64,000 nucleotides of DNA, from contig CAWANJ010000009.1 in the NCBI GenBank assembly GCA_963783385.1, forward strand, positions 1 to 64,000, given 5' to 3'. Below are positions 1 through 32,011 of the stretch, piece after piece. The notes under the pieces are model-generated. The model was not told where the DNA came from, made no database searches, and saw nothing but the letters and a program-made list of their open reading frames with translations. This stretch comes from an uncultured Gemmatimonadales bacterium. GTDB lineage: Bacteria > Gemmatimonadota > Gemmatimonadetes > Palauibacterales > Palauibacteraceae. Every line of letters starts with the position of its first letter. The stretch's first letter is position 1. The translations under genes were made by a program, and so were the position numbers.

Positions 1-170
1 CCACGTCCTGCTTGTTCGCTCGGCTGAGCACCAACGAGCGGGCGTTTCATTTCCTCGGGCCGGCTAAGTATGTCCGGCATGAAGGAGAGCAGCCGATGGC
101 GATTACGTGGAAGCTGGAGTATCGGTTGCCAGGGGATCTGTACCAGGCATTTGCGGCGGCGGTGGCGTGA
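1..170 (+). CDS. 3' end of PLD-helicase-DUF3427 protein, upstream copy (cut by window edge)
   Basis: Translates ...FLGPAKYVRHEGEQPMAITWKLEYRLPGDLYQAFAAAVA*, nearly identical to the C-terminus encoded at 8876-9045. Confidence 0.85.
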   Translation, partial: TSCLFARLSTNERAFHFLGPAKYVRHEGEQPMAITWKLEYRLPGDLYQAFAAAVA

Positions 171-313
171 AGGCGAGAGACTTGAGCGTCCACTGCTCAC
201 ACAGAGCAAGAGGAGAGCGTTGGGTTCAGGGTCGCCGGACCGGCTTACGAGACGCCAGGCGCGTCAGATGACAGGGAATAGGGTAGCCGCTGGAATGGCG
301 AACGTGCTTCTGC

Positions 314-1418
314 TCACACCCCGTTTGCGGCTGGATCCATCCCCTGCCGACCTACGCTCACTACGACCGGAGTCCTCGTTTCCGAGGGCGGACAGCCCGC
401 GTAGCAGGGTCAGCATCGCGCGCCCAATGTCGTCGCTGTACTCATCTCCACGGGGTAATAGCGGTCAGCTTCAAGATGCCGCCCTTCCCCTCGTGATCCT
501 CCGGCGCGACAATGCCGAGTGTCTCCGGGAACGCATCGACTTGATATCGGCACTCGGGGGGACAAGATGACCAACGGATGGTCTGTCCCCTTGGAGAAGT
601 CGAACTTCGCGTCAAGATCGTCGACCCTAAAGCCGTAGGACTGTCCCTGGGATCGACTCGCGTTTATGTCATTCTCGCGCAAGCACGTGAGCAGTTCGCT
701 CACGAAGCGACGACGAGCAGGATCTCTTGTTCTCTTCTTGGCCTTGGCCTGCTCCCGCCGCTCCTCTATGGCCTCCCGGACACTCGGCTGCGGTAGAACC
801 TGTTCGAGTGCCAAATAGAGTTGAGTCTCAGATCCCTGAAAGATACGAGCCCTCCAGCACTCAAGGGGAAAAAGCGGCATTGCCAGAGGCTTCCGTTAGG
901 TATTCACAAACCGCTAAGACATTAGTGTTGAAGTCCTCTCCCGAACTAGAACGAGAATCTGGCTGCCATTCAACTCTGTGTCATCCACGAGGTGATCACT
1001 AAGTCGTTGCGCTGCAATCCTCTTCCGACTCGGCGACCTCAACTAGTGCCGTTCGCCCGCCCTTGTTGCTGTGATCGAGAAAGAGCCTTGTTAGATCGTC
1101 CGCGGTGTATCGTGCGTATTCTGCTGCGTAGGTGACCGCCTGCGTTACGGCGCCGGGTTGCACAATGCCTCTCTTTAGTTCCGCAAGCACCACGTTTCCT
1201 ACGTCGTCAATGCCAACCAGATCCGATCGCTGATCGTCAGACGATCGATCCTGCCGACCGATCCAGAGGATCCTACGACCGAACAGATCTGGACCTGTTG
1301 ATGCAAGCCATTCCTCCAAGTGTTGTGGCTCGGTGTATCCAAGCTCCTCCATCCAGCGCTCCTTCATAGGGCTTGCGGTTCTTGCCTCAGAATCCAGAGT
1401 GTAGATTGCGGTGTTCAT
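314..1418 (-). CDS. NucS/EndoMS-like PD-(D/E)XK endonuclease domain protein, copy A (frameshifted)
   Basis: E..LEEWL, SDLVGID and LAELKRG motifs; ORF pieces 999-1418 and 410-880 join by indels to match copy B; lower GC than flanks. Confidence 0.75.
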
Positions 1419-1681
1419 TCATCACTCCTCGCTCGCCGGATCAGGCCGGATCGAGCTCTCGTTGGCTGAGCTCGGTTGCTGAGAGGATCTAGTGAGCTCT
1501 CCGTTCGGACACCCGCACTTCTGCGCGTTCCGCATTGCGCCTGATGTCCATGCACTCTGCTGACTCCTCCAGTAGTGACGGGACGCAACGGATCTCTTTG
1601 TAGACTAGGGCTGACTCTGGAGTGCACCGGTGGTCGCGCGACCTCTGGTGATGGGGGGACCTAGGGCCTGGCGCGCCGAAT

Positions 1682-1709
1682 TTGTAAATCTGCAACACTT
1701 GGGTAGGAT
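1682..1709 (+). promoter_or_regulatory. Putative sigma70-like promoter of the HTH-X operon
   Basis: TTGTAA-16 bp-TAGGAT directly upstream of the HTH gene, conserved in copy B. Confidence 0.3.
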
Positions 1710-1710
1710 A

Positions 1711-2097
1711 GTGAGTACCTGCGAGGACGACAAGGCCACCGGGCCCGCCACCCTGGGCTCCTTCCTGCGCGAGCGCCGCGAGGCGCTCCGGCGGGAGGAC
1801 CGCCGCTACTCGCTCCGGCAGGTGGCCGGGCGGGTGGGGATCGAGCCCAGCTACCTGAGCAAGGTGGAGCGGGACATCGGCTCGCCGCCCTCGGAGGAGA
1901 CGCTCGTCCGGCTGGCGGGGGACCTCGGCGTGGAGCCGGACGTGGTCCTCGCCCTGGCGGGGAAGATCTCCTCGGACCTGAGGGAGGCGATCCGGCGGCG
2001 GCCGCTCCTGTTCGGCGAGCTCATCCGCGAGCTCAAGGACGCGCCCGACCGGGCGGTGCTGCGCGTGGTGCGGGAGGTGAGGGACGGGGAGTGGTGA
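1711..2097 (+). CDS. XRE-family HTH transcriptional regulator, copy A
   Basis: SLRQVAGRVGIEPSYLSKVERD HTH motif; ends VREVRDGEW*; start codon uncertain. Confidence 0.85.
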   Translation: MSTCEDDKATGPATLGSFLRERREALRREDRRYSLRQVAGRVGIEPSYLSKVERDIGSPPSEETLVRLAGDLGVEPDVVLALAGKISSDLREAIRRRPLLFGELIRELKDAPDRAVLRVVREVRDGEW

Positions 2098-2117
2098 CCC
2101 GAGGTGGAGAGAGAGCC

Positions 2118-3371
2118 ATGATCGAGCTGAAGGACGACGCGCTGGAGTTCTCGTTTCCGGAGGTCCACCCGGAGGCGCGCCTCCGGGTCGAGTTCCAGAG
2201 GACGCTCCGGATCCCGGACGACGAGAAGACCCACCGCTCCCGCCGGGCCTCGGCCGCTTCCCGCTCCGCCACGTGGACGACGCGGGCGAGAGGGTGCCGC
2301 CCGCGTGGCTCCGCCGGGGCGGCGTCATGCTCCCCATGTACCAGTCCGAGGCCATGTGGCTGAACTTCACCGCGTACTCGGACTACCCGTTCGCCCTCAA
2401 GGTGGCGGCCGGGAAGGTGAACGCGGCCACGGGCGAGGACTGGGAGGACGGCCTCCACCGCGGCCCCCAGGACTACCTGCTCGTCCCGGGCCAGCCGTGG
2501 CTGGACGGCTACGCGGTCGGGAAGGGCGTGATCCGCCAGTTCGTGGCCATGCCCCTCGGCGAGGGCTACACGGCCGAGGAGCAGATCCACGGCACCGCCG
2601 AGCACGGCGGCGTGCAGCTCCTGGCGTGCCCGATGAAGCGGGAGGCGTACGAGCGGAAGGTGGCGGGCGGCGCGAGCTCATGCGCGAGGACCTCGTGAAC
2701 ATGGACATGCGTGTGCGAGGCGCCCGCCTCCATGGCCCGCCCCGACATGGGCCTCGCCCGGGCGGCCGCATGCGCCAGGAGATCTACGAGGACGAGTTCG
2801 AGCTCGAGGACTGGGACCAGCGCCACCGGAGCCGCTGCTTCGTGCACCTCACCAACTCGCTGTGTGGCGGGCCATCACCGGCGAGGCGCCGCCCACCACG
2901 CCCCGACCGCGAAGGAGTACACGGACGCGACGCGCCGACTTCGCGGTGTGCGAGGCCATGCCCTCCGCCCGCCCCGACATGGGCCTCGCCCCGGGCGGCC
3001 GCATGCACCAGGAGATCTACCGGGACGAGTTCGAGCTGGAGGACTGGGACCAGCGCCACCGGAGCCGCTGCTTCATCCACCTCACGAACTCCCTCGTGTG
3101 GCGGGCCATCACGGGCGAGGCGCCGCCCACCACGCCCCCGACCGCCCGGGAGTACACGGCCGCCGGCCTCCCGTGGTTCGACTACTACGCGGCCGACCGG
3201 AAGGCGCTGGAGGGCTCGGAGAAGCTCGCCGAGCTCGAGAGCGTGCTGGAGAAGGCCGCGCGGGAGGGCAGGGTGGGCCTGCCGGAGAACGAGGCGGTGG
3301 AGGGCGAGCGGGTGGTGCCGATTCGGGAGCGAGGGTGGGAGCAGGCTGGGGTGCGAGAAGGGCGGTGGTAG
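2118..3371 (+). CDS. Uncharacterised protein X, copy A (frameshifted, internal duplication)
   Basis: RBS GAGGTGGAGA; motifs FQRTLRIPDD, MLPMYQSEAMWLNF, PGQPWLDG, IRQFVAMPLG, GLPWFDYY; ends AGVREGRW*. Confidence 0.8.
2711..3164 (+). repeat. Internal ~220-bp tandem duplication in protein X copy A
   Basis: 2711-2928 and 2946-3164 both encode RPDMGLAPGGRM..EIY.DEFELEDWDQRHRSRCF.HLTNSL; copy B has one unit. Confidence 0.9.
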
Positions 3372-3624
3372 GCAAGAGCGTGGACTTCCTGTCTCGAGCT
3401 CCCAGGTACTTCGTTAGGAGGCACGGTAGCTAAGAGCGGGCCGTGCGCCGGTGGGGTGGGCCATAGACTCGATGCGGACGGGCGAAATATTGGTTCGAAT
3501 CAAGTCGGTCGCATTCAATCTCTTCCTGGCAGCCTTTCTCTTCGGCTGGCCTATGGCATCTTCTTTGGACTCTTCATGTGGCCGGGGGGAGTCATTGTGC
3601 TCCTACGAGCGCTAACGCTGCAGG

Positions 3625-4059
3625 TTGAGGACGACCTGCGTCCAAAGCCTCCTGAGCCGAACCCAAGGGAGAGCCGCGTGCTTGTGCCGAACACGGGCAA
3701 CGTCCCCTCCGACAATCGCGGCGCCCGATACAGATGTCACGAGCCACTACCGGGTCACCACCGGGTCCTTCAGCTCGGAAGTCGGCTTCCTAGTGCTCGA
3801 CGTTCTCCCCGAGTCCAAGACGTTGCATCTATACTAGTTGTTCATCTCACCGGAGCTGCGTGGCAGAGGCTACGGAACGTCGACTCTGCGAGCTGTCGAG
3901 GACCATGCGTGGCGGCTCGGGCGTCGGCGGGTCAGTGTGATTCCCCGGCAGCTTGACGATCCGTCGCTAACGAACTCGGAGCTCGAACAGTGGTACTTCG
4001 CGACAGGTTACCGGTTGCATGCTGAGGCCCCGCGGGTATTCGAGAAGCGGCTGTGGTGA
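3625..4059 (+). pseudogene. GNAT-family acetyltransferase interrupted by in-frame TAG (3835-3837)
   Basis: LHLY*LFISPELRGRGYGTSTL contains acetyl-CoA-binding motif A (R-G-x-G-x-G); N-terminus unclear. Confidence 0.65.
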
Positions 4060-4183
4060 GTCGCACCAAGATTTGCGTATCGCTCACATTCTCGTTATCG
4101 ACCTCCAGCCCTCCAGGGGAAGAGCACCACCACGAGCACTTTTGATCGCTGTCTTAAGAGCTCGGCTTGCTGTGCGAGGGTTC

Positions 4184-4213
4184 TATGACACATATTCACA
4201 AGTGTCATACAAT
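4184..4213 (+). promoter_or_regulatory. abiE promoter with overlapping inverted-repeat operator
   Basis: TATGACAC-10 bp-GTGTCATA (4184-4209) overlaps ATGACA-17 bp-TACAAT; AbiEi proteins autorepress via such repeats. Confidence 0.7.
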
Positions 4214-4234
4214 CCTCGCATTCGGAGTGCGCTC

Positions 4235-4855
4235 ATGACCTCCCCGTCCGTAACGGAGCAAGTCCGTAAACTGGTGAAGAAGAGGGGGATGGTACGCTAC
4301 CGAGATGTTCAGCAAGCGGGCCTTCCGGCCACCTTGCTGTACCGGCTGCGCGACCGTGGAGAGCTGATCCAGCTTGCCCCAGGGCTCTTCATGCACGCCG
4401 ACGCAGACATCAGCCAACGGCACACGTATGCGGAGGCGGCGACGCGAGTCCCACAGGGAGTCGTCTGCCTCACGTCTGCCCTTGCGTTCCACGACATTGG
4501 TGTCCAGATGCCCAGCCGGGTCTGGATGGCACTGAATCGAGATGAGGTCCGGTCGCAACCACGCGTGGCCGACGTTCCCATGAAGTTCGTTTGGTTCTCT
4601 GGCGCTGCATTCCAGGAGGGGCAAGAGCAGCATTGGGTCGAGGGAGTTCCGGTTCGTGTCTACAACCCCGGCAAGACGGTCGCCGATCTCTTCAAATTCC
4701 GCAGCAAAGTCCGCATCAGCGTCGCGATCGAAGCCTTACGAGATGGCTGGCACCATCGACTCTTCACAATCAATGAGCTCGAACACTACGCTGATGTCTG
4801 TCGCGTGAGCGGTGTCATGCGCCCTCACCTGCAGAACCTCGTTGCCTCGACATGA
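4235..4855 (+). CDS. abiEi: Type IV TA antitoxin AbiEi
   Basis: N-terminal wHTH (GELIQLAPGLF), VVCLTSALAFHD, VRVYNPGKTVADLFKFR motifs. Confidence 0.9.
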   Translation: MTSPSVTEQVRKLVKKRGMVRYRDVQQAGLPATLLYRLRDRGELIQLAPGLFMHADADISQRHTYAEAATRVPQGVVCLTSALAFHDIGVQMPSRVWMALNRDEVRSQPRVADVPMKFVWFSGAAFQEGQEQHWVEGVPVRVYNPGKTVADLFKFRSKVRISVAIEALRDGWHHRLFTINELEHYADVCRVSGVMRPHLQNLVAST

Positions 4856-5769
4856 GCCACTGGACTGCCGATAAAGCCAACGTTCCAGCCGCCGTCCATG
4901 CCAGACTCTTGCGCCTGTCCAAACAGATGGGGGTGACCCTTGACACTTTGATGGTCCGGTATGCGACTGAACGGCTATTGTACCGGCTGTCTTGTTCTGA
5001 ACATGCGAACGACTTCGTCCTCAAGGGCGCTTGGCTGTTCTACGTGTGGGATCTTCCGCGTCGAAGCACACGAGATGTCGATTTTCTCGCTCACGGCGAC
5101 AACTCGGTGATACGGATCGAAGGGGTGATCTGTAAAGTGGCACGCATGCAGGTGGATCTTCCGGATGGGCTTCGCTTTGACCCGGAGACCGTCTCGAGTA
5201 GGCAGCTCCAGGGAGATGACGAGTATTCCGGTGTAAGGGTACGAATTACAGCCTTCCTGGGAACTGCCGAGATCCGTGCGCAAGTCGACGTAGGATTTGG
5301 GGAAGCGTTGGTCGAGGAGCCGCTCCAGGTCGAGTTGCCCGCCCTGCTCGACTACCCATCCCCGCGATTGCAGAGCTACAGCGCCGAGGCAGCCGTCGCC
5401 GAGAAGCTCGAGGCCATGGTTCGCTTCGGCATGCGGAATGGCCGCATGAAGGACTATTTCGACATCTACATCTTGAGCCGTGCGCGGGCTTTTGAGGCAG
5501 CGGGGACACAAGATCAGATCGCCGCCACGTTCTCTCGCCGTAAAACAGCCCTTCCAGCCTCCGTTCCAGACGGGCTTACGGATGAATTTGCTCGTGGCAA
5601 GGAGAAAGCATGGCAAGCCTTCCTGGACGATGCGGATGCCCGGGATGCACCGGAAGCCTTCGTCAATGTTATTCGCGCTGTCCGTGACTTTGCCTACCCA
5701 CTTCTGAGTGCGGCGGCGACGTCGACACCCCTGAAAAAGCGTTGGACCCCGGACGGTGGCTGGGAATAG
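4852..5769 (+). CDS. abiEii: Type IV TA toxin, AbiEii-family nucleotidyltransferase
   Basis: FVLKGA, RSTRDVDF, AEKLEAM, RMKDYFD motifs; ATGA overlap with abiEi. Confidence 0.92.
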   Translation: MSHWTADKANVPAAVHARLLRLSKQMGVTLDTLMVRYATERLLYRLSCSEHANDFVLKGAWLFYVWDLPRRSTRDVDFLAHGDNSVIRIEGVICKVARMQVDLPDGLRFDPETVSSRQLQGDDEYSGVRVRITAFLGTAEIRAQVDVGFGEALVEEPLQVELPALLDYPSPRLQSYSAEAAVAEKLEAMVRFGMRNGRMKDYFDIYILSRARAFEAAGTQDQIAATFSRRKTALPASVPDGLTDEFARGKEKAWQAFLDDADARDAPEAFVNVIRAVRDFAYPLLSAAATSTPLKKRWTPDGGWE

Positions 5770-5936
5770 GGATGGTTGCCGCATCAGTGGCAGATGGCTT
5801 GCCATGAATGATGGATCACTGGCGTTCCGGATGACTTTGATCCGTTCGACCTTTCCAACCCTCCGTGTCATGAAGTTCGAGCTCGAAGATTGCCGCACGC
5901 GCCGACATAGGGAAGGGCCCAATAGGACAAGGCGCC

Positions 5937-8900
5937 ATGCCTGACGCCTCCCTCCCCCACGGTCTCTACGAGTCCCTGGTCACCGAAGCCCTCGCCGCCC
6001 GCCTCGAGGCTCTCCCGAGGGACCGCCTCGCACAAGCCGAATCTCTCCGGACCGCCGAGGCCGCCGACCGTATCGCCTGGCATATCGCCTCCGTAGTGGA
6101 GCGGGCGATCGAGATGCTGCCTGAGTCGAAGCGAGCCGAGGCCGGCGCTGCCCTCGCGCGCTCGCTGGTAGCTCGGGTGGTGAACGCCACCGAGGTCACC
6201 GAGCTGGCCGACGAAAGCCTACGCGAGCCGCCGGAGGTGCTCCGCGCGGTGAGCCGGCTGCGCCCCGACGGCAGCCCGGCCGACATCGACGCCCCCCTGA
6301 TCCCGCTGCTTGACTCCGCCCTGCTGACGAACTCCCCGGGCGAGCCGAACGTGGGCCGCCAGATCGCGGCGGAGATCGCGTCGGCGGACCGCATCGACCT
6401 GATCATGGCGTTCATCCGCCGTTCGGGCATTCAGCCGCTCCGCGAGGGGCTGCGGCGGCACGTGGAGCGCGGCCGGCGACTGCGGGTCCTCACCACCACG
6501 TACACGGGCTCGACGGAAGCGGCGGCGCTGGACTGGCTGGTGGAGCTGGGGGCCGACGTCCGGGTGTCGTATGACGCCACGAGCACGCGCCTGCACGCGA
6601 AGGCGTGGCTGTTTCACCGGGACTCCGGCTTCTCCACCGCCTACGTGGGCTCGTCCAACCTGACCCAATGGGCGCAGGTCACGGGGCTGGAGTGGAACGT
6701 CCGGATCTCCGGCGCCCGGAACCGCTCCATCATCGAGAAGGTGGGCGCGGTCTTCGACAGCTATTGGGAGGAGGCGGACTTCGAGCCGTATGACCGCGAC
6801 CGCTTCGCCGTCGCCGTGGACCGGACGCGGCCCGATACCGAGCGCCTGGTCCTCAGCCCCACGGAGGTCCGACCGTACCCGTTCCAGGAGCGGCTGCTGG
6901 AGCAGATCGAGCTGTCGCGCGAGCGAGGGTGGCACCGGAACCTGCTCGTGGCGGCCACGGGGACCGGGAAGACGGTCATGGCCGCGCTGGACTACCAGCG
7001 GCTGCGGTCGGCGCTGCCCCGGGCCCGGCTCCTCTTCGTCGCCCACCGCGAGGAGATTCTGCGCCAGAGCCGGAACACGTTCGCCCACGCGCTCCGGGAC
7101 GCGAGCTTCGGCGAGCTGTGGGTGGGCGGCCGGCGGCCGGAGGAGTACGAGCACGTCTTCGCGTCCATCCAGTCGCTCAACGCCAGCGGCGTGGACGCCA
7201 TCCCGCCCGATCACTTCGACGTGGTCATCGTGGACGAGTTCCACCACGCCGCGGCCGCGTCGTACAGGCGGCTCCTGGAACGGCTGGAGCCCCGCGAGCT
7301 CCTGGGCCTTACGGCCACGCCCGAGCGGAGCGACGGCCTGCCCGTCCTCCACTGGTTCGGCGACCGCATCGCCGCCGAGCTCCGGCTCTGGGACGCCATC
7401 GACCAGCACCGCCTCACCCCCTTCGCCTACTACGGCATCGCCGACGACCTCGACCTCCGGGAAATTCCGTGGCGACGCGGCCGGGGGTACGATGAGGCGC
7501 GCCCTCACGAACGTCATCACCGCCACCGACGTCTGGGCCCGCTCCGTCCTCCACCAGGTAGAGCAGCACTTCGGCAACCCGCCCGAGTTCCGCGCCCTCG
7601 GCTTCTGCGTGGGCGTGGACCACGCGCGCTACATGGCCCGCGTGTTCAATGAGCACCGCGTCCCCGCCGTCGCGGTCACCGGCCAGACGGACGACGAAGA
7701 GCGCAAGCGGGCCCTGAGGGATCTGGAGCGAGGCGACATCCGCGTCGTCTTCTCCGTGGATCTCTTCAACGAGGGCGTGGACGTCCCCACCGTGGACGCG
7801 CTGCTGATGCTCCGTCCCACCGAGAGCCCGCTCCTCTTCCTCCAGCAGCTCGGCCGCGGGCTCCGGAAAGCCGAGGGCAAGGCCCTGTGCACCGTCCTCG
7901 ACTTCGTGGGCCATCACCGGAAGGAGTTCCGCTACGACCGCCGGTTCCGCGCCCTCCTGGGCGGCACCCGCACGGACGTCATGCGGCAGGTGCGAGCAGG
8001 GCTTCCCGTTCCTTCCCGCCGGCTGCCACATGGAGCTGGACCGCGTCGCCAGCGAGCGGGTGTTGGACAGCATCCGGAACGCGCTCCCGCGCAACATCAC
8101 CGAGCGCGCCGAGGAGCTGGCCGAGCTGGCCGCGGCCGCACCCGGGGGCGAAGTCACCCTGAAGCAGTTCCTGGACGCCACCGGCCTCGACCTGGACGAC
8201 GTTTACGCCGGCACCTACGCCTGGTCCGACCTCCGGGAGCGGGCCGGCCTGGCCACCGCCCCCGCCGGCGAGCATGAGGCCACGCTACGCCGGGCGTGCG
8301 GCCGCCTGCTCCACGTGGACGACCCCGAGCGGCTAGTCGCCTGGCGTCGCTGGCTGCAGCGCGATGGGCCGCCGGACGTGGGCGTCTCCGAGCGCGACGA
8401 CCGTCTGCTCCGCATGCTCGTGGGCCAGCTCCTGGACCAGGTGGCCGACAAAGAGATGAGCCTCCGCGACGGCGCGGCCGTGCTCTGGGCCCACGCCCAG
8501 GTCCGCCGCGAGCTGGACGAGCTGCTCGAGGTGCTGGAGGAGCGGGTGAGTCACCTCACGCCCGACCTCCGGATCCTCCCCGACGTCCCACTCCATGTCC
8601 ACGCGCGCTATACCCGCATCGAGATCCTGGCCGCGTGCGGCAAGGGCGAGGGAGCGCGAGGTGATTCCGTGGCAGACCGGCGTCCTGTACGTGGAGGAGC
8701 TCCCCGCCGACCTGTTCGCGTTCACGCTGGACAAGAGCGTCGGCGGGTTCTCCCCCACCACCCGCTACCGCGACTACGCCATCAGCCGCGACCTCATCCA
8801 CTGGGAGAGCCAGTCGGTCACGCGGGCGGACAGCGAGACGGGGCGGCGGTACCAGGAGCACGCCGCGCGGGGCAGCCACGTCCTGCTTGTTCGCGCGGCT

Positions 8901-9045
8901 GAACACCAACGAGCGGGCGTTTCATTTCCTCGGGCCGGCGACGTATGTCCGGCACGAGGGAGAGCAGCCGATGGCGATTACGTGGAAGCTGGAGTATCGG
9001 TTGCCGGGGGATCTGTACCAGGCGTTTGCGGCGGCGGTGGCGTGA
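5937..9045 (+). CDS. PLD(HKD)-nuclease / SF2 helicase / DUF3427 protein (several frameshifts)
   Basis: LHAKAWLF and GSSNLT PLD motifs, ATGTGKT Walker A, DEFHH, TATPER, QQLGRGLR, C-terminal YRDYAIS..IHWESQS; frames shift near 7495, 7990, 8660 and 8890. Confidence 0.9.
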
Positions 9046-9188
9046 AGGCGAGAGACTTGAGCGTCCACTGCTCACACAGAGCAAGAGGAGAGCGTTGGGT
9101 TCAGGGTCGCCGGACCGGCTTACGAGACGCCAGGCGCGTCAGAATGACAGGGAATAGGGTAGCCGTGCAGCGGTGAACGTGCTTCTGC

Positions 9189-10287
9189 TCACACCCCGTT
9201 TGCGGCTGGATCCATCCCTGTCAACCTACGCTCACTACGACCGGAGTCCTCGTTTCCGAGGGCGGACAGCCCGCGTAGCAGGGTCAGCATCGCGCGCCCA
9301 ATGTCGTCGCTGTACTCATCTCCACGGGTAATAGCGGTCAGCTTCAAGATGCCGCCCTTCCCCTCGTGATCCTCCGGCGCGACAATGCCGAGTGTCTCCG
9401 GGAACGCATTCGACTTGATATCGGCACTCGGGGGACAAGATGACCAACGGATGGTCTGTCCCCTTGGAGAAGTCGAACTTCGCGTCAAGATCGTCGACCC
9501 TAAAGCCGTAGGACTGTCCCTGGGATCGACTCGCGTTTATGTCATTCTCGCGCAAGCACGTGAGCAGTTCGCTCACGAAGCGACGACGAGCAGGATCTCT
9601 TGTTCTCTTCTTGGCCTTGGCCTGCTCCCGCCGCTCCTCTATGGCCTCCCGGACACTCGGCTGCGGTAGAACCTGTTCGAGTGCCAAATAGAGTTGAGTC
9701 TCAGATCCCTGAAAGATACGAGCCCTCCAGCACTCAAGGGAAAAAGTGGCATTGCCAGAGGCTTCCGTTAGGTATTCACAAACCGCTAAGACATCAGCGT
9801 TGAAGTCCTCTCCAACTAGAACGAGAATCTGGCTGCCATTCAACTCTGTGTCATCCACGAGGTGATCACTAAGTCGTTGCGCTGCATCCTCTTCCGACTC
9901 GGCGACCTCTACTAGTGCCGTTCGCCCGCCCTTGTTGCTGTGATCGAGAAAGAGCCTTGTTAGATCGTCCGCGGTGTATCGTGCGTATTCTGCTGCGTAG
10001 GTGACCGCCTGCGTTACGGCGCCGGGTTGCACGATGCCTCTCTTTAGTTCCGCAAGCACCACGTTTCCTACGTCGTCAATGCCAACCAGATCCGATCGCT
10101 GATCGTCAGACGATCGATCCTGCCGACCGATCCAGAGGATCCTACGACCGAACAGATCTGGACCTGTTGATGCAAGCCATTCCTCCAAGTGTTGTGGCTC
10201 GGTGTATCCAAGCTCCTCCATCCAGCGCTCCTTCATAGGGCTTGCGGTTCTTGCCTCAGAATCCAGAGTGTAGATTGCGGTGTTCAT
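9189..10287 (-). CDS. NucS/EndoMS-like PD-(D/E)XK endonuclease domain protein, copy B
   Basis: 323-aa ORF with SDLVGID...ELKRG; one frameshift near 9430 joins the tail ending ...DPAANGV*. Confidence 0.8.
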
Positions 10288-10497
10288 TCATCACTCCTCG
10301 CTCGCCGGATCAGGCCGGATCGAGCTCTCGTTGGCTGAGCTCGGTTGCTGAGAGGATCTAGTGAGCTCTCCGTTCGGACACCCGCACTTCTGCGCGTTCC
10401 GCATTGCGCCTGATGTCCATGCACTTGCTGACTCCTCCAGTAGTGACGGGACGCAACGGATCTCTTTGTAGACTAGGGCTGACTCTGGAGTGCACCG

Positions 10498-10965
10498 GTG
10501 GTCGCGCGACCTCTGGTGATGGGGGGACCTAGGGCCTGGCGCGCCGAATTTGTAAATCTGCAACACTTGGGTAGGATAGCTGACTCCCGCGACGACAACA
10601 ATGACACCGGGCCCGCCACCCTGGGCTCCTTCCTGCGCGAGCGCCGCGAGGCGCTGCGGCGGGAGGACCGCCGCTACTCGCTCCGGCAGGTGGCCGGGCG
10701 GGTGGGGATCGAGCCCAGCTACCTGAGCAAGGTGGAGCGGGACATTGGCTCGCCGCCCTCGGAGGAGACGCTCGTCCGGCTGGCGGGGGAGCTGGCCGTC
10801 GAGCCGGACGTGGTCCTCGCCCTGGCGGGGAAGATCTCCTCGGACCTGAGGGAGGCGATCCGGCGGCGGCCGCGCCTGTTCGGCGAGCTCATCCGCGAGC
10901 TCAGGGACGCGCCCGACCGGGCGGTGCTGCGCGTGGTGCGGGAGGTGAGGGACGGGGAGTGGTGA
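10498..10965 (+). CDS. XRE-family HTH regulator, copy B
   Basis: Same HTH motif; ends VREVRDGEW*; true start probably downstream of the ORF-track start. Confidence 0.8.
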   Translation: MVARPLVMGGPRAWRAEFVNLQHLGRIADSRDDNNDTGPATLGSFLRERREALRREDRRYSLRQVAGRVGIEPSYLSKVERDIGSPPSEETLVRLAGELAVEPDVVLALAGKISSDLREAIRRRPRLFGELIRELRDAPDRAVLRVVREVRDGEW

Positions 10966-10985
10966 CCCGAGGTGGAGAGAGAGCC

Positions 10986-12012
10986 ATGATCGAGCTGAAG
11001 GACGACGCGCTGGAGTTCTCGTTTCCGGAGGTCCACCCGGACGCGCGCCTCCGGGTCGAGTTCCAGCGGACGCTCCGGATCCCGGACGACGGGAAGACCC
11101 ACGCGCTCCCGCCGGGCCTCGGCCGCTTCCCGCTCCGCCACGTGGACGACGCGGGCGAGAGGGTGCCGCCAGAGTGGCTCCGCCGGGGCGGCGTCATGCT
11201 CCCCATGTACCAGTCCGAGGCGATGTGGCTGAACTTCACCGCGCACTCCGACTACCCGTTCGCCCTCAAGGTGGCGGCCGGGAAGGTGAACGCGGCCACG
11301 GGCGAGGACTGGGAGGACGGCCTCCACCGCGGCCCCCAGGACTACCTGCTCGTCCCGGGCCAGCCGTGGCTGGACGGCTACGCGGTCGGAGAAGGGCGTG
11401 ATCCGCCAGTTCGTGGCCATGCCCCTCGGCGAGGGCTACACGGCCGAGGAGCAGATCCACGGCACCGCCGAGTTCGGGGGCGTGCAGCTCCTGGCGTGCC
11501 CGATGAAGCGGGAGGCGTACGAGCGGAAGGTGGCGAGGGCGGCGCGGCGTCGCGCGGCGACCTCGCGAACATGCGACATCTGCGGTGTGCGAGGCCATCC
11601 GCCTCCGGCCCGCCCCGACATGGGCCTCGCCCCGGGCGGCCGCATGCGCCAGGAGATCTACGAGGACGAGTTCGAGCTCGAGGACTGGGACCAGCGCCAC
11701 CGGAGCCGCTGCTTCGTGCACCTCACGAACTCCCTCGTGTGGCGGGCCATCACCGGCGAGGCGCCGCCCACCACGCCCCCGACCGCCAGGGAGTACACGG
11801 CCGCCGGCCTCCCGTGGTTCGACTACTACGCGGCCGACCGGAAGGCGCTGGAGGGCTCGGAGAAGCTGGCCGAGCTCGAGAGCGTGCTGGAGAAGGCGGC
11901 GCGGGAGGGCAGGGTGGGCCTGCCGGAGAACGAGGCGGTCGAGGGTGAGCGGGTGGTGCCGATCCGGGAGCGGGGGCGAGAGCGGGCGGGCGTGCGGGAC
12001 GGGAGGTGGTGA
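10986..12012 (+). CDS. Uncharacterised protein X, copy B (frameshift near 11390)
   Basis: MIELKDDALEFSFPEVHP...LPPGLGRFPLRHVDD...; ends RAGVRDGRW*. Confidence 0.85.
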
Positions 12013-12242
12013 GAAGCGGTGATCATATCTGGCTGAGCCGCATGATCTTCCGAAGTGCGCGGAGGGAGCCAGGGGACAGGTCGGATGCCCGATGTCTCGT
12101 CATCACGGTCGTCCCGGTCTCTAGACGCCCCCCTCCGTGCCGCGGCACCTCGCCGTGCGGTTGGCCACATCGACCCGGGCCCGTTACTTGCGCCTAACGA
12201 TAACTATAGACGTTACCACGTCTTCCGCCCGGAGGGTCGACC

Positions 12243-27052: not shown

Positions 27053-28138
27053 CTACGCCTCGTCCTCGTCCAGCTCCGATACGAGCACGTTGCTCGCGAG
27101 GTCGTCGTGGAGGCGGGCGAGCAGGTCGTCCTCCGGCAGCTTCCCGATCACGGCCTGCATCTTCCTCAGGGCCCGGTCGCTGGGGAAGGCCAGGTTGCAG
27201 ACCGGATCGCCCGGCGAGACCGCCGGCAGCGTGGTGAGGCCGAGCACGACCGCATCGCGCGGAGCTGTCACCACGTTCTGACGACGGCCCACGAGGCTCG
27301 TGTTCGTCGCGATCGGCTGGTCCTTCTCGATCACATCGCCGGCGTGTACGTGGAAGGTCAGGAACCCGCCGGCGGAGGCCCGGATCCACTTCGTCTCCTC
27401 GGCCACGATCCGGTAGGCGGGCTCGACCACCTCGCCGTCGATCATCTCGAGCCCCACGAGCACGTTCCGGATCCCGCGCAGGGTGTACTCGACGACCGCG
27501 GGCTCGACCTTCCAGATCTCGCCCGCCTCGAGGATGAGCGTGGCGCACCCCGCCTTCACCGCCTCCCGCCTCAGGCTCCCCGCGGGCCCCTTTCCGTTCA
27601 GGGTCAGCTGGGCCCCGAACAGCGAGGCCAGCCGGCCGGTCGCCTCCTGGTCCATGTCGGCGCGCGCGTTCGGGAAGTTCGTCCGCCTCGCCGAGGCGGT
27701 ATGGAGGTCGATCCCGTAGTTGGAGCGGCCCACGATGTTGTCGTAGATGACCCGGGCGAGACGGCTGGTGAGGCTCCCCCTGGTCAGGCCCGGGAAGGAC
27801 CGGTTCAGGTCCCGGCGGTCGGGCGAGTACCGGCTGAGCTGCTCGAAGCCCGGGATGTTCACGACGGGCACCAGGATCAGACTCCCCGACCGGAGCTCGA
27901 ACGGCCGCTCCAGGATGAGATGCCGGATCGTGCCGGTCCCGTTGAGCTCGTCCCCGTGCACGGCGGCGGTGACGAACACCGTCGGGCCCGGCCGCTCGCC
28001 GCGCCACACGTGGACGGGGACGCGGATCCTGGCTCCGCTGTAGCTCTTGCTCACCGTGAGCGCGAGGTCGGCCTGCTCACCCGGCGCGATCTTGCGGCGT
28101 CCCCACACGCCGACAGTCTTGCGCGCTCTCCTGGCCAT
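27053..28138 (-). CDS. Succinylglutamate desuccinylase/aspartoacylase family (M14)
   Basis: AAVHGDELNG, DLNRSFPG, GIDLHTAS, EAGE. Confidence 0.9.
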   Translation of the reverse strand: MARRARKTVGVWGRRKIAPGEQADLALTVSKSYSGARIRVPVHVWRGERPGPTVFVTAAVHGDELNGTGTIRHLILERPFELRSGSLILVPVVNIPGFEQLSRYSPDRRDLNRSFPGLTRGSLTSRLARVIYDNIVGRSNYGIDLHTASARRTNFPNARADMDQEATGRLASLFGAQLTLNGKGPAGSLRREAVKAGCATLILEAGEIWKVEPAVVEYTLRGIRNVLVGLEMIDGEVVEPAYRIVAEETKWIRASAGGFLTFHVHAGDVIEKDQPIATNTSLVGRRQNVVTAPRDAVVLGLTTLPAVSPGDPVCNLAFPSDRALRKMQAVIGKLPEDDLLARLHDDLASNVLVSELDEDEA

Positions 28139-29376
28139 CAGGGGGCGAGACCCTCCAGGGGAGGCGCGGGCTCCGGGGTCGCGGCGGCCGGCGAGCCCGC
28201 CCCCGGCTGGAGCTTCTGGACCTTAGACGGCTTTCCCTTGCGCCGCGCCGGCACGAGGTCCCGCATGTGCTCCAGCTTGCCGTAGCACAGCAACCGGTCG
28301 TGGGGCTCGAGCACCCGGCTGCTCTTCGGATTCGAGATGACGTTCACCTCACGGGTCAGCGTGAGCACGACGATGTCCTTGCTCCGGAGTCCGGATTCCG
28401 CGAGTGTCTGCCCGACCAGGTTCGAGCTCTCCCCGATCGTGAGCTCCGTGACCCCGTAGCCGGCCGTGACCGTCAGCCGCTGGCGGATGTCGAGCTCGGG
28501 GAAGCTCACCTGTCCCGCCATGTAGTCGATGATGGCGCCGGCCACGTCGAGCCCGGTGGCCCCCTCGATCCCCTCGAGTCCGGGGGAGGAGTTCACCTCC
28601 ATCACCTGCGGCCCCTCTCTCCCCTCCAGCATGTCGACGCCGGCCACCTTGAGCCCCATGATCTGCGCCGAGCGGACCGCCGTGTCCGCGAAGACCGGGT
28701 CGAGCTCGACCGCCTGGGCCTGTCCCCCGCGGTGGACGTTGCTGCGGAAATCCCCGCCCTGGGCGACCCGCCGCATCGCGGCCACCACGCGATCGCCGAC
28801 CACGAAGGCGCGGATGTCCCGGCCGGCGCTTTCTCCGACGAACTTCTGGATGAGGACGTTCTGCTTCGTGCTCTGGAGCGTCTCGATGATGGCCGCCGCG
28901 ATCTTCACCGAATCGGCCAGGATCACCCCGACCCCCTGCGTGCCCTCGAGGAGCTTGATGATGACCGGCGCCCCGCCCACATGCTCGATGGCCGGCAGGA
29001 CATCCTCCTTGCGGCGTACGAAGGAGGTGGGAGGGATTCCGAGGTCGTGGCGGCTCAGGATCTGGAGCGCGCGGAGCTTGTCCCGCGAGTTGGCGATACC
29101 GTTCGCGGAGTTCGGCGTGTACACGTCGAGCTGCTCGAACTGCCGCACGAGTGCGGTCCCGTAGTAGGTGATGGACGCCCCGATCCTGGGGAGGATGGCG
29201 TCATAGTGGCTGAGGCGCTTGCCGCGAAAGTAGAGGTCCGGCGCGCGGGGCCGGAGCTCGATCGAGAACTTGAGCGTGTCCAGCACCTTCACTGTGTGCC
29301 CCCGCGCCGCGGCGGCCTCGCGCAGCCGGCGCGTGCTGTAGCACCGGGGTGCCCGTGAAAGGATGGCCAGCTTCAT
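28138..29376 (-). CDS. rimK: RimK-family ATP-grasp ligase with C-terminal TrkA-C domain
   Basis: YSTRRL, RDKLRALQIL, KLLEGTQG.GV, FRSNVHRGG, EVNSSPGLEGIE. Confidence 0.93.
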   Translation of the reverse strand: MKLAILSRAPRCYSTRRLREAAAARGHTVKVLDTLKFSIELRPRAPDLYFRGKRLSHYDAILPRIGASITYYGTALVRQFEQLDVYTPNSANGIANSRDKLRALQILSRHDLGIPPTSFVRRKEDVLPAIEHVGGAPVIIKLLEGTQGVGVILADSVKIAAAIIETLQSTKQNVLIQKFVGESAGRDIRAFVVGDRVVAAMRRVAQGGDFRSNVHRGGQAQAVELDPVFADTAVRSAQIMGLKVAGVDMLEGREGPQVMEVNSSPGLEGIEGATGLDVAGAIIDYMAGQVSFPELDIRQRLTVTAGYGVTELTIGESSNLVGQTLAESGLRSKDIVVLTLTREVNVISNPKSSRVLEPHDRLLCYGKLEHMRDLVPARRKGKPSKVQKLQPGAGSPAAATPEPAPPLEGLAP

Positions 29377-29927
29377 TTCTTTCTTCTCTTCGTGCGAGGA
29401 TCGTTGCCCCGAACCCGCTTCGCCCGTCTTCCGCCGACGTAGGACCCGCTCGGGTCCACGAGGAAACGGCCGCGGATGGCCTGACGCCCGAGCAACATCC
29501 GAAACCCCATGAGGTCCCGCCGCGTGAGCGTGAGCTCGATCGGCCAGCGCTCGCCGAGCAGCTCGATCTCCGAGGACACCACCGGCCGTTCTTCCAGGTT
29601 ACCGCCGGAATCGCGAACGCGCCTCCGTTCGACGAGCGGAAGCTCCACATCGATCTCCCAACCAGCGCTGTGCTGCTCCGGATGGATCTTGAAGCGGACG
29701 AGGGTCCTGCCGTGGCGCTCCACCTCCTCGAGGGCGAAGGCGTGGAGCGCGGACGTGCGCGCCCCCGTATCCACCTTGGCCTTGATCCATTCGATACCGA
29801 GGTCGGGAAAGCTCACCCACTCCCGCCACCCGATGACGCGTTCGGGGCCCGGGGGCTTCCCGCGTCCATCGCTTCGCTGCGCGCCCACCCCTACGACACC
29901 ACCGCTCGGTGCCGGACGGTCGTACAC
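29373..29927 (-). CDS. RimK-associated putative aspartic/Zn protease
   Basis: IGWREWV, KAKVDTGARTSALHA, MGFRMLLGR; start uncertain. Confidence 0.88.
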   Translation of the reverse strand: MYDRPAPSGGVVGVGAQRSDGRGKPPGPERVIGWREWVSFPDLGIEWIKAKVDTGARTSALHAFALEEVERHGRTLVRFKIHPEQHSAGWEIDVELPLVERRRVRDSGGNLEERPVVSSEIELLGERWPIELTLTRRDLMGFRMLLGRQAIRGRFLVDPSGSYVGGRRAKRVRGNDPRTKRRKK

Positions 29928-30077
29928 GCGGACACGATCCCTCCAACCATGGCGTCCCTCCGGGTCGGAAATCTACAGTCTAACAGGCCAGCATCGGCGC
30001 GACGAACGCGCGGGATCAGCCAGGGGGCCGGCCCATCACGATGCATGTCCCGTGCGCCCCCACGCTTGGGTCGGGCC

Positions 30078-30113
30078 CGCGCGCGGGCGGGCGTACGCGA
30101 CGGGCGGTGGTAG
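30078..30113 (+). repeat. Orphan copy of the protein X 3' end (RAGVRDGRW*)
   Basis: 29/36 identical to 11977-12012; mismatches are synonymous except one. Confidence 0.7.
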
Positions 30114-30465: not shown

Positions 30466-30708
30466 ATGACATTGCCACAAAAGGATCTGGAGACCGCCGC
30501 TCTCGCGCTTCCTCGTGAGGAGCGGGCTCGTCTCGCTCGCCGGCTGATCGCGAGCCTGGAACACGAAGTAGAGGAAGCCTGGATCGCGGAGGTCAGAGAG
30601 CGCCTGTCGGCCTACGAGCGCGGTGACCTCGATGCTGTGTCCGCGGATGACGTCATTGCCGAGGGGAGACAGCAGGTCAGGGATGGTGCGTGGGGCTTCG
30701 CTTCCTGA
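30466..30708 (+). CDS. Addiction-module antitoxin component
   Basis: AALALPREERARLARRLIASL...EEAWIAEVRER..AYERG. Confidence 0.85.
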   Translation: MTLPQKDLETAALALPREERARLARRLIASLEHEVEEAWIAEVRERLSAYERGDLDAVSADDVIAEGRQQVRDGAWGFAS

Positions 30709-30961
30709 CGCCTGCGCGTCAGGAGTTCCTCGCCGCGGTCCGATACTACGAGAGGGCCCGGAGCGGTCTGGGTTCGAGTTCATCGACGAGATCGAGGACG
30801 TTCTTGCAGAACTTGCGACGAGCCCGTGGTCGGGCTCCCCATTCGGCGAGGGCGCGCGCCGAAGGCTCCTGCGTCGCTTCCCGTTCGAGGTCGTCTATAG
30901 CATTGGGGAGGAAGAGATCCTCGTGCTGGCGGTCGCGCACCAAAGCCGGCGCTTCTTCTAA
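30690..30961 (+). CDS. RelE/ParE-family toxin (one frameshift near 30770)
   Basis: ARQEFLAAVRYYE..RSGLG / EFIDEI...RRLLRRFPFEVVY...VLAVAHQSRR. Confidence 0.8.
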
Positions 30962-30999
30962 AGGCAGGATCGGCTCGACTGAGCTCCGTGGAGTCCCGC

Positions 31000-31362
31000 T
31001 CAGGCCGGTCCGATCCACCCGTACGTGTTCCGCACGGGATTCCCGTCGCCAGCGGCCTCGCTCCAGGCGGTGAGCGCCCGGAAGTGCGCCGCCAGGTCCG
31101 ACGGCGGGATCGCCGGGGAGAGGAACAGGACGCCTGGGAACTGCCGACCCCTCCGGGCCAGCTCCTCCACGAGCGGCGCGAAGTCTTGGTAGTTCCGCGT
31201 CACCACGACCCTTCCATCCTGCGCGGCGGCCAGCAGCAGATCGAGGTCGTCGGCGCCGCCGAGTCCCTCGTCCCCGGCGTGGACGACGTCCATCCCTTCC
31301 TCCCGCAGCCGGGCGCAGGCCCCGTGGTGGACGTGGACGTCGAACAGGAGAGGCGGGCTCAA
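31000..31362 (-). CDS. DUF5615 PIN-like toxin
   Basis: LLFDVHV, GMDVVH, DGRVVVTRNYQDF, FPGVL. Confidence 0.85.
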   Translation of the reverse strand: MSPPLLFDVHVHHGACARLREEGMDVVHAGDEGLGGADDLDLLLAAAQDGRVVVTRNYQDFAPLVEELARRGRQFPGVLFLSPAIPPSDLAAHFRALTAWSEAAGDGNPVRNTYGWIGPA

Positions 31363-31766
31363 GCCCGGCCGAGCCGCCCGGCCAGGTAACGGCCCGCCCG
31401 GTCGTTGTCCTCGAGGAGCGCGTCGATGCGCTCGGGAAATCGCTCGTAGTAAGCCAGGGCCTCCTCGAGCGTTTCCTCCTGAAGCCACCCGAAGTGCTCT
31501 TGCAGCGCCGCCGGGTCGGAGCGGTACTCGCGGCGGGCCGCCACGATCTCCCAGATCTCGGGCCCGCCCTCGACGGCCGCGCGGCGTCCGCCCAGGCTCT
31601 CCCGGAACTCGAGGTGGGGGAAGCGGCGCAGGGCCCACCACTCCTCGAGGACACGGCGCAGGCCCTCGGACGTGGACTCACCGCGCGCCTCGAACTCTCT
31701 TCGCAGCTCGTCCTCGAGCCACGGGCGCAGCTTCACGCTGATCGGTCGATCGGCGACGGTCGGCAT
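31359..31766 (-). CDS. DUF433-family antitoxin with RHH-like N-terminus
   Basis: FPHLEFRE..GGRRAAV..GPEIWEIV...EALAYYERFPERID. Confidence 0.8.
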   Translation of the reverse strand: MPTVADRPISVKLRPWLEDELRREFEARGESTSEGLRRVLEEWWALRRFPHLEFRESLGGRRAAVEGGPEIWEIVAARREYRSDPAALQEHFGWLQEETLEEALAYYERFPERIDALLEDNDRAGRYLAGRLGRA

Positions 31767-31793
31767 AGTCCGGCTCCCGTTGCGGGTGGCATA

Positions 31794-31808
31794 GTATACC
31801 AGGTATAC
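31794..31808. promoter_or_regulatory. Palindromic operator upstream of the DUF433 antitoxin
   Basis: GTATACC-A-GGTATAC perfect inverted repeat ~28 bp before the start codon. Confidence 0.6.
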
Positions 31809-32011
31809 CACGTCTACCGAGAAACGTGCCCCTCTCCCATCCCCGCGGTCAAGGGCAGGAGGGCTTTCGATGCGGGAAAGGTGTACCCCGGGCCTCACGT
31901 GCGCGTCATCGGGGGGCCGGCCCGCGGCCGTGGTGCCCCCGGGGGCGGTGCGCCCTAGCTTCGGGATCGGTCCTCGGCACCGTCGGAACGGGCAACCCTG
32001 CGAGGTACCGC

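Follow-up and report, generated by a model that had tools for sequence, protein, structure and literature searches.

A helix-turn-helix repressor and an uncharacterised protein with a shared C-terminal peptide, encoded together in a two-gene cassette of many bacterial phyla

The stretch of DNA analysed here (the window) covers 64 kb at the start of contig CAWANJ010000009.1 (996 kb) of an uncultured Gemmatimonadales bacterium, whose genome was scanned as 9 contigs (3.54 Mb, 92% complete). Close homologs bear names that point to Gemmatimonadota/Longimicrobiales metagenome-assembled genomes. Near the start of the window lies a gene pair consisting of an XRE-family helix-turn-helix (HTH) repressor gene and, after a gap of 20 nt, the gene of a protein of uncharacterised family, here called protein X. 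The pair is present twice, in a direct repeat whose first copy takes up bases 1 to ~3400 and whose second runs from 8876 to ~12050 (repeat families D1–D13, spacing 8868–8875, 91–100% identity). Repeat copy A (1–3400) begins with the contig and contains the 3′ end of a helicase gene, a nuclease gene, the HTH gene, and the X gene. Repeat copy B (8876–12050) follows at a spacing of 8.87 kb, and in both copies the nuclease gene is divergently oriented to the HTH and X genes. A sequence-only reading of this DNA had drawn attention to the two genes, since their products end in a similar short peptide, and had placed the operon at positions 1711–3371. These coordinates are correct for the HTH and X genes of copy A and leave out copy B, which sits at 10498–12012.

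The HTH gene is intact in both copies. In copy A it occupies 1711–2097 on the plus strand when the GTG at 1711 chosen in the sequence-only reading is taken as the start; the longest open reading frame (ORF) begins at the GTG at 1630. In copy B it spans 10498–10965 on the plus strand, and its true start probably lies downstream of the GTG at 10498. Both copies end with VREVRDGEW, as had been reported. The product of copy B matches the Pfam families HTH_3 (6.2e-09) and HTH_31 (1.1e-08), and the HTH of the window shows 89% identity with its same-genus ortholog P0002.

A point missed in the sequence-only reading is that the X gene is frameshifted in both copies of the window when compared with an intact, 97%-identical ortholog of the same genus. 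X of copy A (2118–3371, plus strand) is disrupted: one base is missing near 2234, and a scrambled linker at ~2666–2960 is accompanied by a 233-bp internal direct duplication (2757–2861/2990–3094). Its last frame ends with AGVREGRW and a stop codon at 3371. X of copy B (10986–12012, plus strand) has a single +1 frameshift caused by one extra base at ~11387–11390, which divides it into frames 10959–11393 and 11398–12012, and it ends with AGVRDGRW. We checked this extra base against Logan contigs from four public runs (X1–X4). It was missing from all bridging contigs in runs X1, X2, and X4 (depths 7.96/7.96, 9.68/9.68, and 13.4/13.4, respectively), and in run X3, 37.6 of ~66 depth units lacked it. 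One 132-nt Logan contig without the extra base was otherwise identical to the window. Because the bridging public contigs lack this base, the frameshift of copy B may be an assembly error or strain-specific. X of copy A is either degenerate or badly assembled at the contig end. The claim that the X tail is kept despite codon differences holds: over the last eight codons, copies A and B show four synonymous differences and a single E/D replacement, and their stop codons differ as well.

The tail is conserved across homologs of both genes, with the consensus VREVRDGxW for the repressor and VR[DE]Gx[FW] for X. All 120 best HTH homologs end with G-x-W, and 113 of these carry R[DE][VI]RDGxW. In a 42-sequence HTH alignment across phyla, R124, R127, D128, G129, and W131 are invariant, and the mean column identity of 67% marks the repressor as unusually conserved. 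For X, VR[DEQ]Gx[FW] ends 114 of 121 close homologs and lies no more than one residue from the end in 118 of them. Roughly 31 sequences of the 40-sequence X alignment end with G-x-[WF]. Among the best 150 X representatives at 50% identity, some of which are fragments or fusions, Gx[WF] ends 45; in 11 more, N-terminally extended forms among them, V[RK]E[WFY] falls within the C-terminal ten residues.

Comparison of the HTH and X profiles by hhalign gave a single alignment, which pairs the nine C-terminal residues of one with those of the other (E 0.02, probability 2.4%). Since this probability is low, the two families are not homologous, and a longer homology between their C-terminal regions is ruled out by an alignment that covers nine residues only. 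As the nonamer is the sole local similarity between the two profiles, it provides an unbiased confirmation of the tail that had been noticed by eye. Of 22,855 stop-to-stop ORFs of at least 80 aa in the genome of the window, five end with the strict tail motif (two HTH, two X, and one short relic), and none end with the reversed motif used as a control. The motif is therefore not a general cellular tag, because it is confined genome-wide to the HTH copies, the X copies, and the relic. The shared tail is real and not a product of chance.

A third occurrence of the tail lies in the window at 30072–30113 (plus strand), at the end of ORF 29349–30113, where it encodes ARAGVRDGRW followed by a stop. 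Over 40 nt it matches the 3′ end of X copy B at 83% identity, with several synonymous differences, and the ORF runs mostly antisense to RimK-type genes at 28138–29376 and 29373–29927 (both minus strand). It was not found in three same-genus genomes. Either the remnant of an X 3′ end or a small ORF that encodes the tail alone could account for it.

The two genes occur together far beyond this genus, and the prediction that the operon is a conserved unit was confirmed. We collected 80 genome loci of X from Gemmatimonadota, Planctomycetota, Chloroflexota, Acidobacteriota, Pseudomonadota, Myxococcota, Kiritimatiellia, and other groups. A same-strand ORF ending with [VA]R[ED][VI]RDGxW lies directly upstream of X in 71 of them, and homology clustering detects the HTH in 76. 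These 80 loci contain no third conserved gene; the next cluster, found in nine loci, consists of overlapping shadow ORFs. In a further 80 metagenome loci, fetched with a more divergent X alignment, the HTH tail stands directly upstream of X in 60; in 10 of the 20 without it, the sequence upstream is shorter than 380 nt. Among 41 related genomes, 13 have both genes, one has X alone, two have HTH fragments alone, and 25 have neither. The pair also occurs on plasmids of cultured organisms, namely Euzebya pacifica (HTH ending with VREVADGDW, X with VTDGTW) and Bosea sp. RAC05 (HTH ending with IDEGEW, X with VSEGVI). The HTH and X genes are a conserved and patchily distributed two-gene cassette, which we read as self-contained and horizontally mobile. 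On a plasmid of Miltoncostaea oceani (locus L097, 3959–5382), an X gene whose product ends with HVRDGSW precedes an HTH gene; this HTH has no tail and is unrelated to the tail-bearing HTH family.

That the resemblance of the two tails is under selection is best seen in loci on viral contigs, which also gave information on the partner of X. In 33 such loci, in which X is 29–61% identical to the query, an XRE-HTH partner ending with V[RKT]DGxW was found in 14. Two others (L205 and L208) have an X with only 33% identity to the query, and a non-XRE protein of 67 aa with a ribbon-helix-helix (RHH)-like pattern is encoded upstream of it. In each of these two, the partner and its own X share the last six residues (VRDGEW/VRDGEW and VRDGKW/VRDGKW, respectively). 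The L208 partner matches RHH_1 (E 0.021) and a NikA-like family (0.055) of Pfam, both below the cut-off; the L205 partner has no Pfam match and is RHH-like by sequence pattern. At L188, a 160-aa partner ending with VRTGKW, with a NikA-like (RHH-type) match of E 0.001, below the cut-off, stands beside an X ending with VRNGSW. At least 10 of the 33 loci have an X ending with [DN]GxW and no tail-bearing upstream partner. It follows from these viral-contig loci that the tail belongs primarily to X, and that the DNA-binding partner is exchangeable and bears a copy of it. The DNA-binding domain is exchanged while the C-terminal element is kept, with the RHH assignment being weak. The earlier proposal that the repressor tail mimics the X tail is upheld as to its direction, since X keeps its tail without a tail-bearing partner and RHH-like partners carry it.

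In seven viral contigs (L196, L200, L201, L203, L204, L206, and L207), a protein of ~300 aa with a Cys-rich end (C-x2-C-x6-C) precedes X. X ends there with tails of the I[ST][DN]GxW type, and the preceding protein is not a tail-bearing DNA-binding protein.

For 121 loci, we compared the region preceding the HTH gene with 605 shuffled sequences. Inverted repeats with at least 7/8 arm matches were present in 80 of the 121 upstream regions versus 78 of the 605 shuffles, and perfect 8/8 repeats in 36 versus 2. The consensus of the palindrome is TGTA[CG]TA(0–4)TA[CG]TACA. Of the 80 regions with an inverted repeat, 69 have a TTGAC-like box, resembling a −35 element (TTGACA), ahead of the palindrome, usually at a distance of 14–18 nt from its start, and in relatives the start codon follows the palindrome almost directly. 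This layout would be that of an autorepressed promoter, possibly with a leaderless transcript, and in most relatives the repressor probably controls its own operon through the palindrome. In the genus of the window, the region 5′ of the HTH gene is different and has neither this palindrome nor a consensus promoter, and the inverted repeats near the HTH starts of the window are unrelated to the palindrome of the relatives.

Protein X is one of the larger protein families that have no curated model, and it reaches fungi and giant viruses. A HMMER search of 1.84 billion representatives yielded 3708 clusters at 50% identity with E ≤ 1e-3, of which 861 had E ≤ 1e-30. A word-index search found at least 8000 relatives, and every name among the matches listed was "hypothetical protein". 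X is ~335–345 aa long. Pfam gave nothing for the X pieces of the window and no meaningful match for any of the 40 members of alignment A1. None of these 40 matched a kinase family of Pfam even at E ≤ 1, and no peptidase family was among the Pfam matches. X matched no family of NCBIfam, PHROGs, or PADLOC and no PDB sequence at E ≤ 10. The earlier view of X as an uncharacterised family agrees with these searches. What the sequence-only reading said of annotation labels and ubiquitin-like fusions was also borne out: among Atlas clusters related to X, the label is "Integral membrane protein" for those of Actinomycetota and "Ubiquitin-like domain-containing protein" for those of Ascomycota. Among 59 longer X representatives, fusions to ubiquitin plus RING, VWA, Sel1, ZZ, and DUF932 domains were observed, the ubiquitin-like fusions of fungi included, and one longer form carries a protein kinase and an FGE-sulfatase domain. 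Relatives of X thus occur in bacteria of many phyla, in fungi (with ubiquitin-like and RING fusions), in giant viruses, and on phage contigs.

The blocks FQRTLRIPDD, YQSEAMW, QPWLDG, RQFVAMPLG, and GLPWFDYY pointed out in the sequence-only reading are present in X and are conserved columns of the family alignment. In P0001 numbering, the invariant residues include T34, R36, Q146, Q161, and Q172, and D39, E83, K105, D135, and E159 are nearly invariant. Such polar residues are compatible with an active or ligand-binding site, without pinpointing one.

Two further X homologs stand in other contexts. On plasmid pBb1S5b of Bradyrhizobium barranii (L098, 3992–8813), a short tail-less homolog (293 aa) heads an operon annotated with an M12 metallopeptidase, a caspase-family protein, and a trypsin-like peptidase, which is a protease-rich context. 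In the jumbo phage Virus Rctr197k (L096, KX853510.1, 3150–4258), the homolog is in two pieces, another disrupted copy, and is annotated as "putative membrane protein" plus a misc_feature.

The AlphaFold2 (AF2) model of X, built from the 40-sequence alignment, is confident, with a predicted local distance difference test (pLDDT) value of 88.6 and a predicted template modelling score (pTM) of 0.87. It is mostly beta over residues 6–260, with a disordered linker at 194–211. Foldseek found nothing in the PDB at E ≤ 0.001 for this model; the best match had E 0.046 and a template modelling (TM) score ≤ 0.24. The best VIA-align match among 48,161 chains was the ZP of uromodulin (Z 4.4, root mean square deviation 4.1 over 132 residues), followed by MSP, p53-core, and Ig-like sandwiches. 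The likeness of the modelled fold to solved structures would be a generic beta-sandwich resemblance only. In BFVD, the model matched uncharacterised giant-virus proteins (Harvfovirus, E 2.4e-21, TMq 0.65–0.69) and a ubiquitin-like-domain protein. The description of X as enzyme-like was a guess: the model is beta-sandwich-like and has no solved relative by Foldseek or VIA-align.

The repressor is ~117 aa long and has a SinR/HipB-like HTH, a three-helix C-terminal extension, and a four-residue D-G-x-W end. In its AF2 model (pLDDT 89), the HTH domain is followed by helices 91–99, 101–113, and 116–127; VREVR sits in the last of these helices, and D-G-x-W is a short end. Among solved structures, the model matched SinR of the SinR-SinI complex best (1b0n_A, E 1.2e-3, TMt 0.53), and further fold matches were RghR, P22 c2, ClgR, the CapH N-terminal domain (7t5u), DdrO, and HigA. 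A predicted complex of X and the HTH gave ipSAE values of 0.00 and 0.00; controls were not run, and this result is evidence neither way.

In the window, the repeat unit has the order helicase 3′ end, nuclease, HTH, X, AbiE, and then helicase (1–12050). The nuclease of copy B (9316–10287, minus strand) is intact and NucS-like/PDC-S11-like (PADLOC PDC-S11 1.1e-24; NCBIfam NucS 1.5e-4, below the cut-off), and its counterpart in copy A (410–1418, divergently oriented) is split. This nuclease is a local neighbour only; it is not kept beside X elsewhere and is outside the conserved cassette. Between the repeat copies lie AbiEi (4019–4855, plus strand; Pfam AbiEi_4 1.8e-10) and AbiEii (4852–5769, plus strand; Pfam AbiEii 5.8e-36, PADLOC AbiEii 9.7e-91). 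These are followed by a gene for a phospholipase D (PLD) plus ResIII helicase resembling type IV methyl-directed restriction enzymes (5937–9045, plus strand; Pfam ResIII and PLDc_2, PADLOC mREase_IV 6.8e-133). The helicase gene is spread over at least four overlapping frames (ORFs 5937–7652, 6790–8277, 8030–8902, and 8595–9176), and either the gene is decaying or the consensus of the region 5937–9176 has many indel errors. The flanking nuclease, helicase-nuclease, and AbiE genes named in the sequence-only reading were thus recovered by Pfam and PADLOC. In a same-genus genome, a 17.3-kb contig has X at both ends, one intact and one frameshifted. The duplication is therefore probably real in the genus and breaks assemblies.

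The defence-like surroundings had led to the expectation that the cassette co-localises with defence islands. Our sample of 78 neighbouring ORFs, drawn from 44 of the 80 genome loci, contained 40 with Pfam matches and only ~3 that were defence- or toxin–antitoxin (TA)-like. A defence-island association as a general property is ruled out on this sample, and the defence-island setting of the window is local, because the sampled neighbours elsewhere are mostly non-defence genes.

Elsewhere in the window, small TA-looking ORFs were noted by eye only at 30623–31898. They comprise a RelE/ParE-like ORF of 112 aa at 30623–30961 (plus strand) and a minus-strand pair at 31000–31641/31359–31898. A 300-nt direct repeat pair at 54775–55074/62857–63156 (family D8) shows 71% identity at a spacing of 8082 nt.

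We tentatively favour the reading, with somewhat less than an even chance, that the cassette is a TA-like or regulator–effector switch in which exchangeable DNA-binding partners mimic the C-terminus of X. The X tail would be an ancestral functional peptide of X, self-binding or related to assembly. The DNA-binding partner would present a copy of this peptide and engage the same site on X, so that the repressor and X would be physically coupled through a shared site, as antitoxin C-terminal segments engage toxins. The state of X would thereby be tied to repression of the cassette. Conservation, linkage, the sharing of the tail, the swapping of partners, and the operator-like palindrome are observed here, whereas contact between the two proteins, which of them controls the other, and whether X is toxic are inferred. 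A more far-reaching version, which is possible and on balance unlikely, is that X is the founder of a new fold and family whose activity is gated by its own C-terminal peptide, and that the XRE-HTH and RHH partners of bacteria copied this peptide to occupy the same site. The effector's state would in this way be coupled to cassette transcription, and a TA-like module would be controlled through mimicry of a C-terminal peptide.

The arrangement resembles type II TA systems in that two co-directional genes start with that of the DNA-binding protein and spread patchily across phyla and also onto plasmids and viral contigs. It further resembles them in the predicted palindrome of the autoregulatory kind and in the swapping of the DNA-binding domain with retention of the C-terminal element. 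In contrast to type II toxins, X exceeds most of them by far in size, is related to eukaryotic and giant-virus proteins, and matches no known toxin family. There is also a likeness to CapH of the cyclic-oligonucleotide-based anti-phage signalling system (CBASS), as the HTH has a weak PADLOC capH match (4.8e-5) and the CapH N-terminal domain (7t5u) is among its fold matches. However, no CapP-like metallopeptidase stands beside the HTH, and the likeness is confined to the generic XRE HTH domain.

Several observations weigh against the switch with a mimicked C-terminus. The promoter region of the window has neither the palindrome nor a consensus promoter, and a consensus scan of copy B for promoters and terminators found nothing. 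In the 44-locus sample, the neighbours are mostly transporters, peptidases, and metabolic enzymes, that is, ordinary chromosomal surroundings. X has a non-canonical end (VREW.., VREM.., or VREY..) in 33 of the 71 genome loci with the HTH tail. In the AF2 monomers, the X tail is weakly placed (residues 330–344, pLDDT 55–61), and the last block of the HTH has pLDDT ~69, with VREVR helical rather than a free peptide. In E. coli, the conserved Trp of HipB had no effect on the affinity for HipA (PMC3376134). Position-by-position co-variation of the two tails also lost its force. In an early table, all 75 pairs with R at HTH position −5 also had R at X position −5, and all 7 pairs without R in the one lacked it in the other. 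The more diverse viral-contig pairs then brought counter-examples, namely L187 (R in the HTH, T in X) and L192 (T in the HTH, R in X). We put 98 pairs, de-replicated by X identity, to a permutation test, which for all six positions and for positions −5/−4/−2 gave p values of 0.043 and 0.032 with 72 clusters, 0.065 and 0.048 with 61, and 0.17 and 0.15 with 17. With the counter-examples and this weak test, the co-variation was set aside as evidence and is suggestive at most.

Among the alternatives, the one that survives best, with a rather small chance in our judgement, is that the tail serves as a tag for a third party, such as a Lon-type or other C-terminus-recognising protease or adaptor, for co-turnover or co-localisation. 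The sequence-only reading had offered both a conjugation tag and a degradation tag; the former found no support, and the latter is a live rival with a precedent in HipB. As described in PMC3376134, HipB is an Xre-HTH antitoxin whose C-terminal 16 residues, with a universally conserved Trp at the end, are a Lon degradation signal in E. coli. Removal of this tail leaves HipA and DNA binding unchanged, and the conserved Trp is seen in a HipA pocket. In Shewanella, the last three residues of HipB (G-W-Y) occupy a hydrophobic HipA pocket (PMC4150777). The present cassette is like HipB-HipA in having the antitoxin-like gene first, an Xre-family HTH, and an operator in its own promoter (here a palindrome predicted in relatives), and a conserved aromatic residue that follows Gly or an acidic residue likewise closes the protein. 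In contrast to HipA, X has no kinase or other Pfam domain, and X itself bears the tail, whereas HipA is not described with the end motif of HipB in the available text of these papers. Moreover, HipB has a 16-residue disordered tail, whereas the HTH here has, in the AF2 model, a structured three-helix extension. A tag would fit the retention of the tail by X at loci without a tail-bearing partner and the less confident placement of the tail ends in both AF2 models. However, among the 22,855 ORFs the strict motif ends only the HTH and X copies and one 40-nt relic; a host-specific reader is ill-suited to the same tail across many phyla and viral contigs; and the two RHH-like partners equal their own X at all six residues, the variable position included.

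A homotypic pairing of the SinR/SinI type, in which X copies an oligomerisation surface of the repressor, enters a mixed complex with it, and lifts or reinforces repression, has a slim chance; X would then be an anti- or co-repressor instead of the effector under control. PMC3163267 describes the SinR-SinI heterodimer surface as built of residues conserved between both proteins, and the cassette is like SinR-SinI and SlrR-SlrA in that the repressor and its partner have a common conserved C-terminal element, which there serves hetero-association. SinR is the best solved match of the HTH model, followed by RghR; VREVR lies in the last helix of the three-helix extension; and the HTH has a weak NCBIfam match to SlrR. 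This match scores 21.6 bits, far under the 250-bit cut-off, which places the HTH outside SlrR and leaves a fold likeness only. In contrast to SinI, the partner here is not a small helical antagonist but a 340-aa, beta-rich, and strongly conserved protein, which also occurs without a repressor or fused to VWA, kinase, RING, or ubiquitin-like domains and exceeds the needs of an anti-repressor. The similarity between the HTH and X is a shared element of 6–9 residues and includes no helical domain.

An ordinary local regulator beside an enzyme or binding protein, with each tail serving its own fold (as a helix cap or a packed aromatic) and having no shared function, would suit the mostly metabolic, transport, and peptidase neighbourhoods, the many invariant polar residues of X, and the statistically fragile co-variation, but we consider it improbable, because the sole profile–profile alignment is the terminal nonamer, a different DNA-binding fold bears the same tail beside a divergent X, and a repressor so conserved across phyla and so strictly linked to a patchy gene would be unusual.

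A literature search, with subscription journals and supplementary files outside its scope, found no description of the X family or of such a C-terminal motif shared by repressor and effector; HipB and SinR were the only precedents that came up. The architecture resembles known two-gene TA and regulator cassettes, while three things about it are new to the literature searched: the family of the effector, the effector's fold, and the agreement of the two C-termini. The tight pairing with an ultra-conserved repressor offers a concrete route to studying X, and the shared terminal peptide yields a sharp prediction on what six residues do. Should the tail prove to be a degron, it would amount to a degradation signal that is portable across phyla. 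If the mimicry of the X tail by its DNA-binding partners is true, the cassette would represent a new way to couple an effector and its regulator, and matching C-termini of two neighbouring genes would be a simple signature for finding more such pairs.

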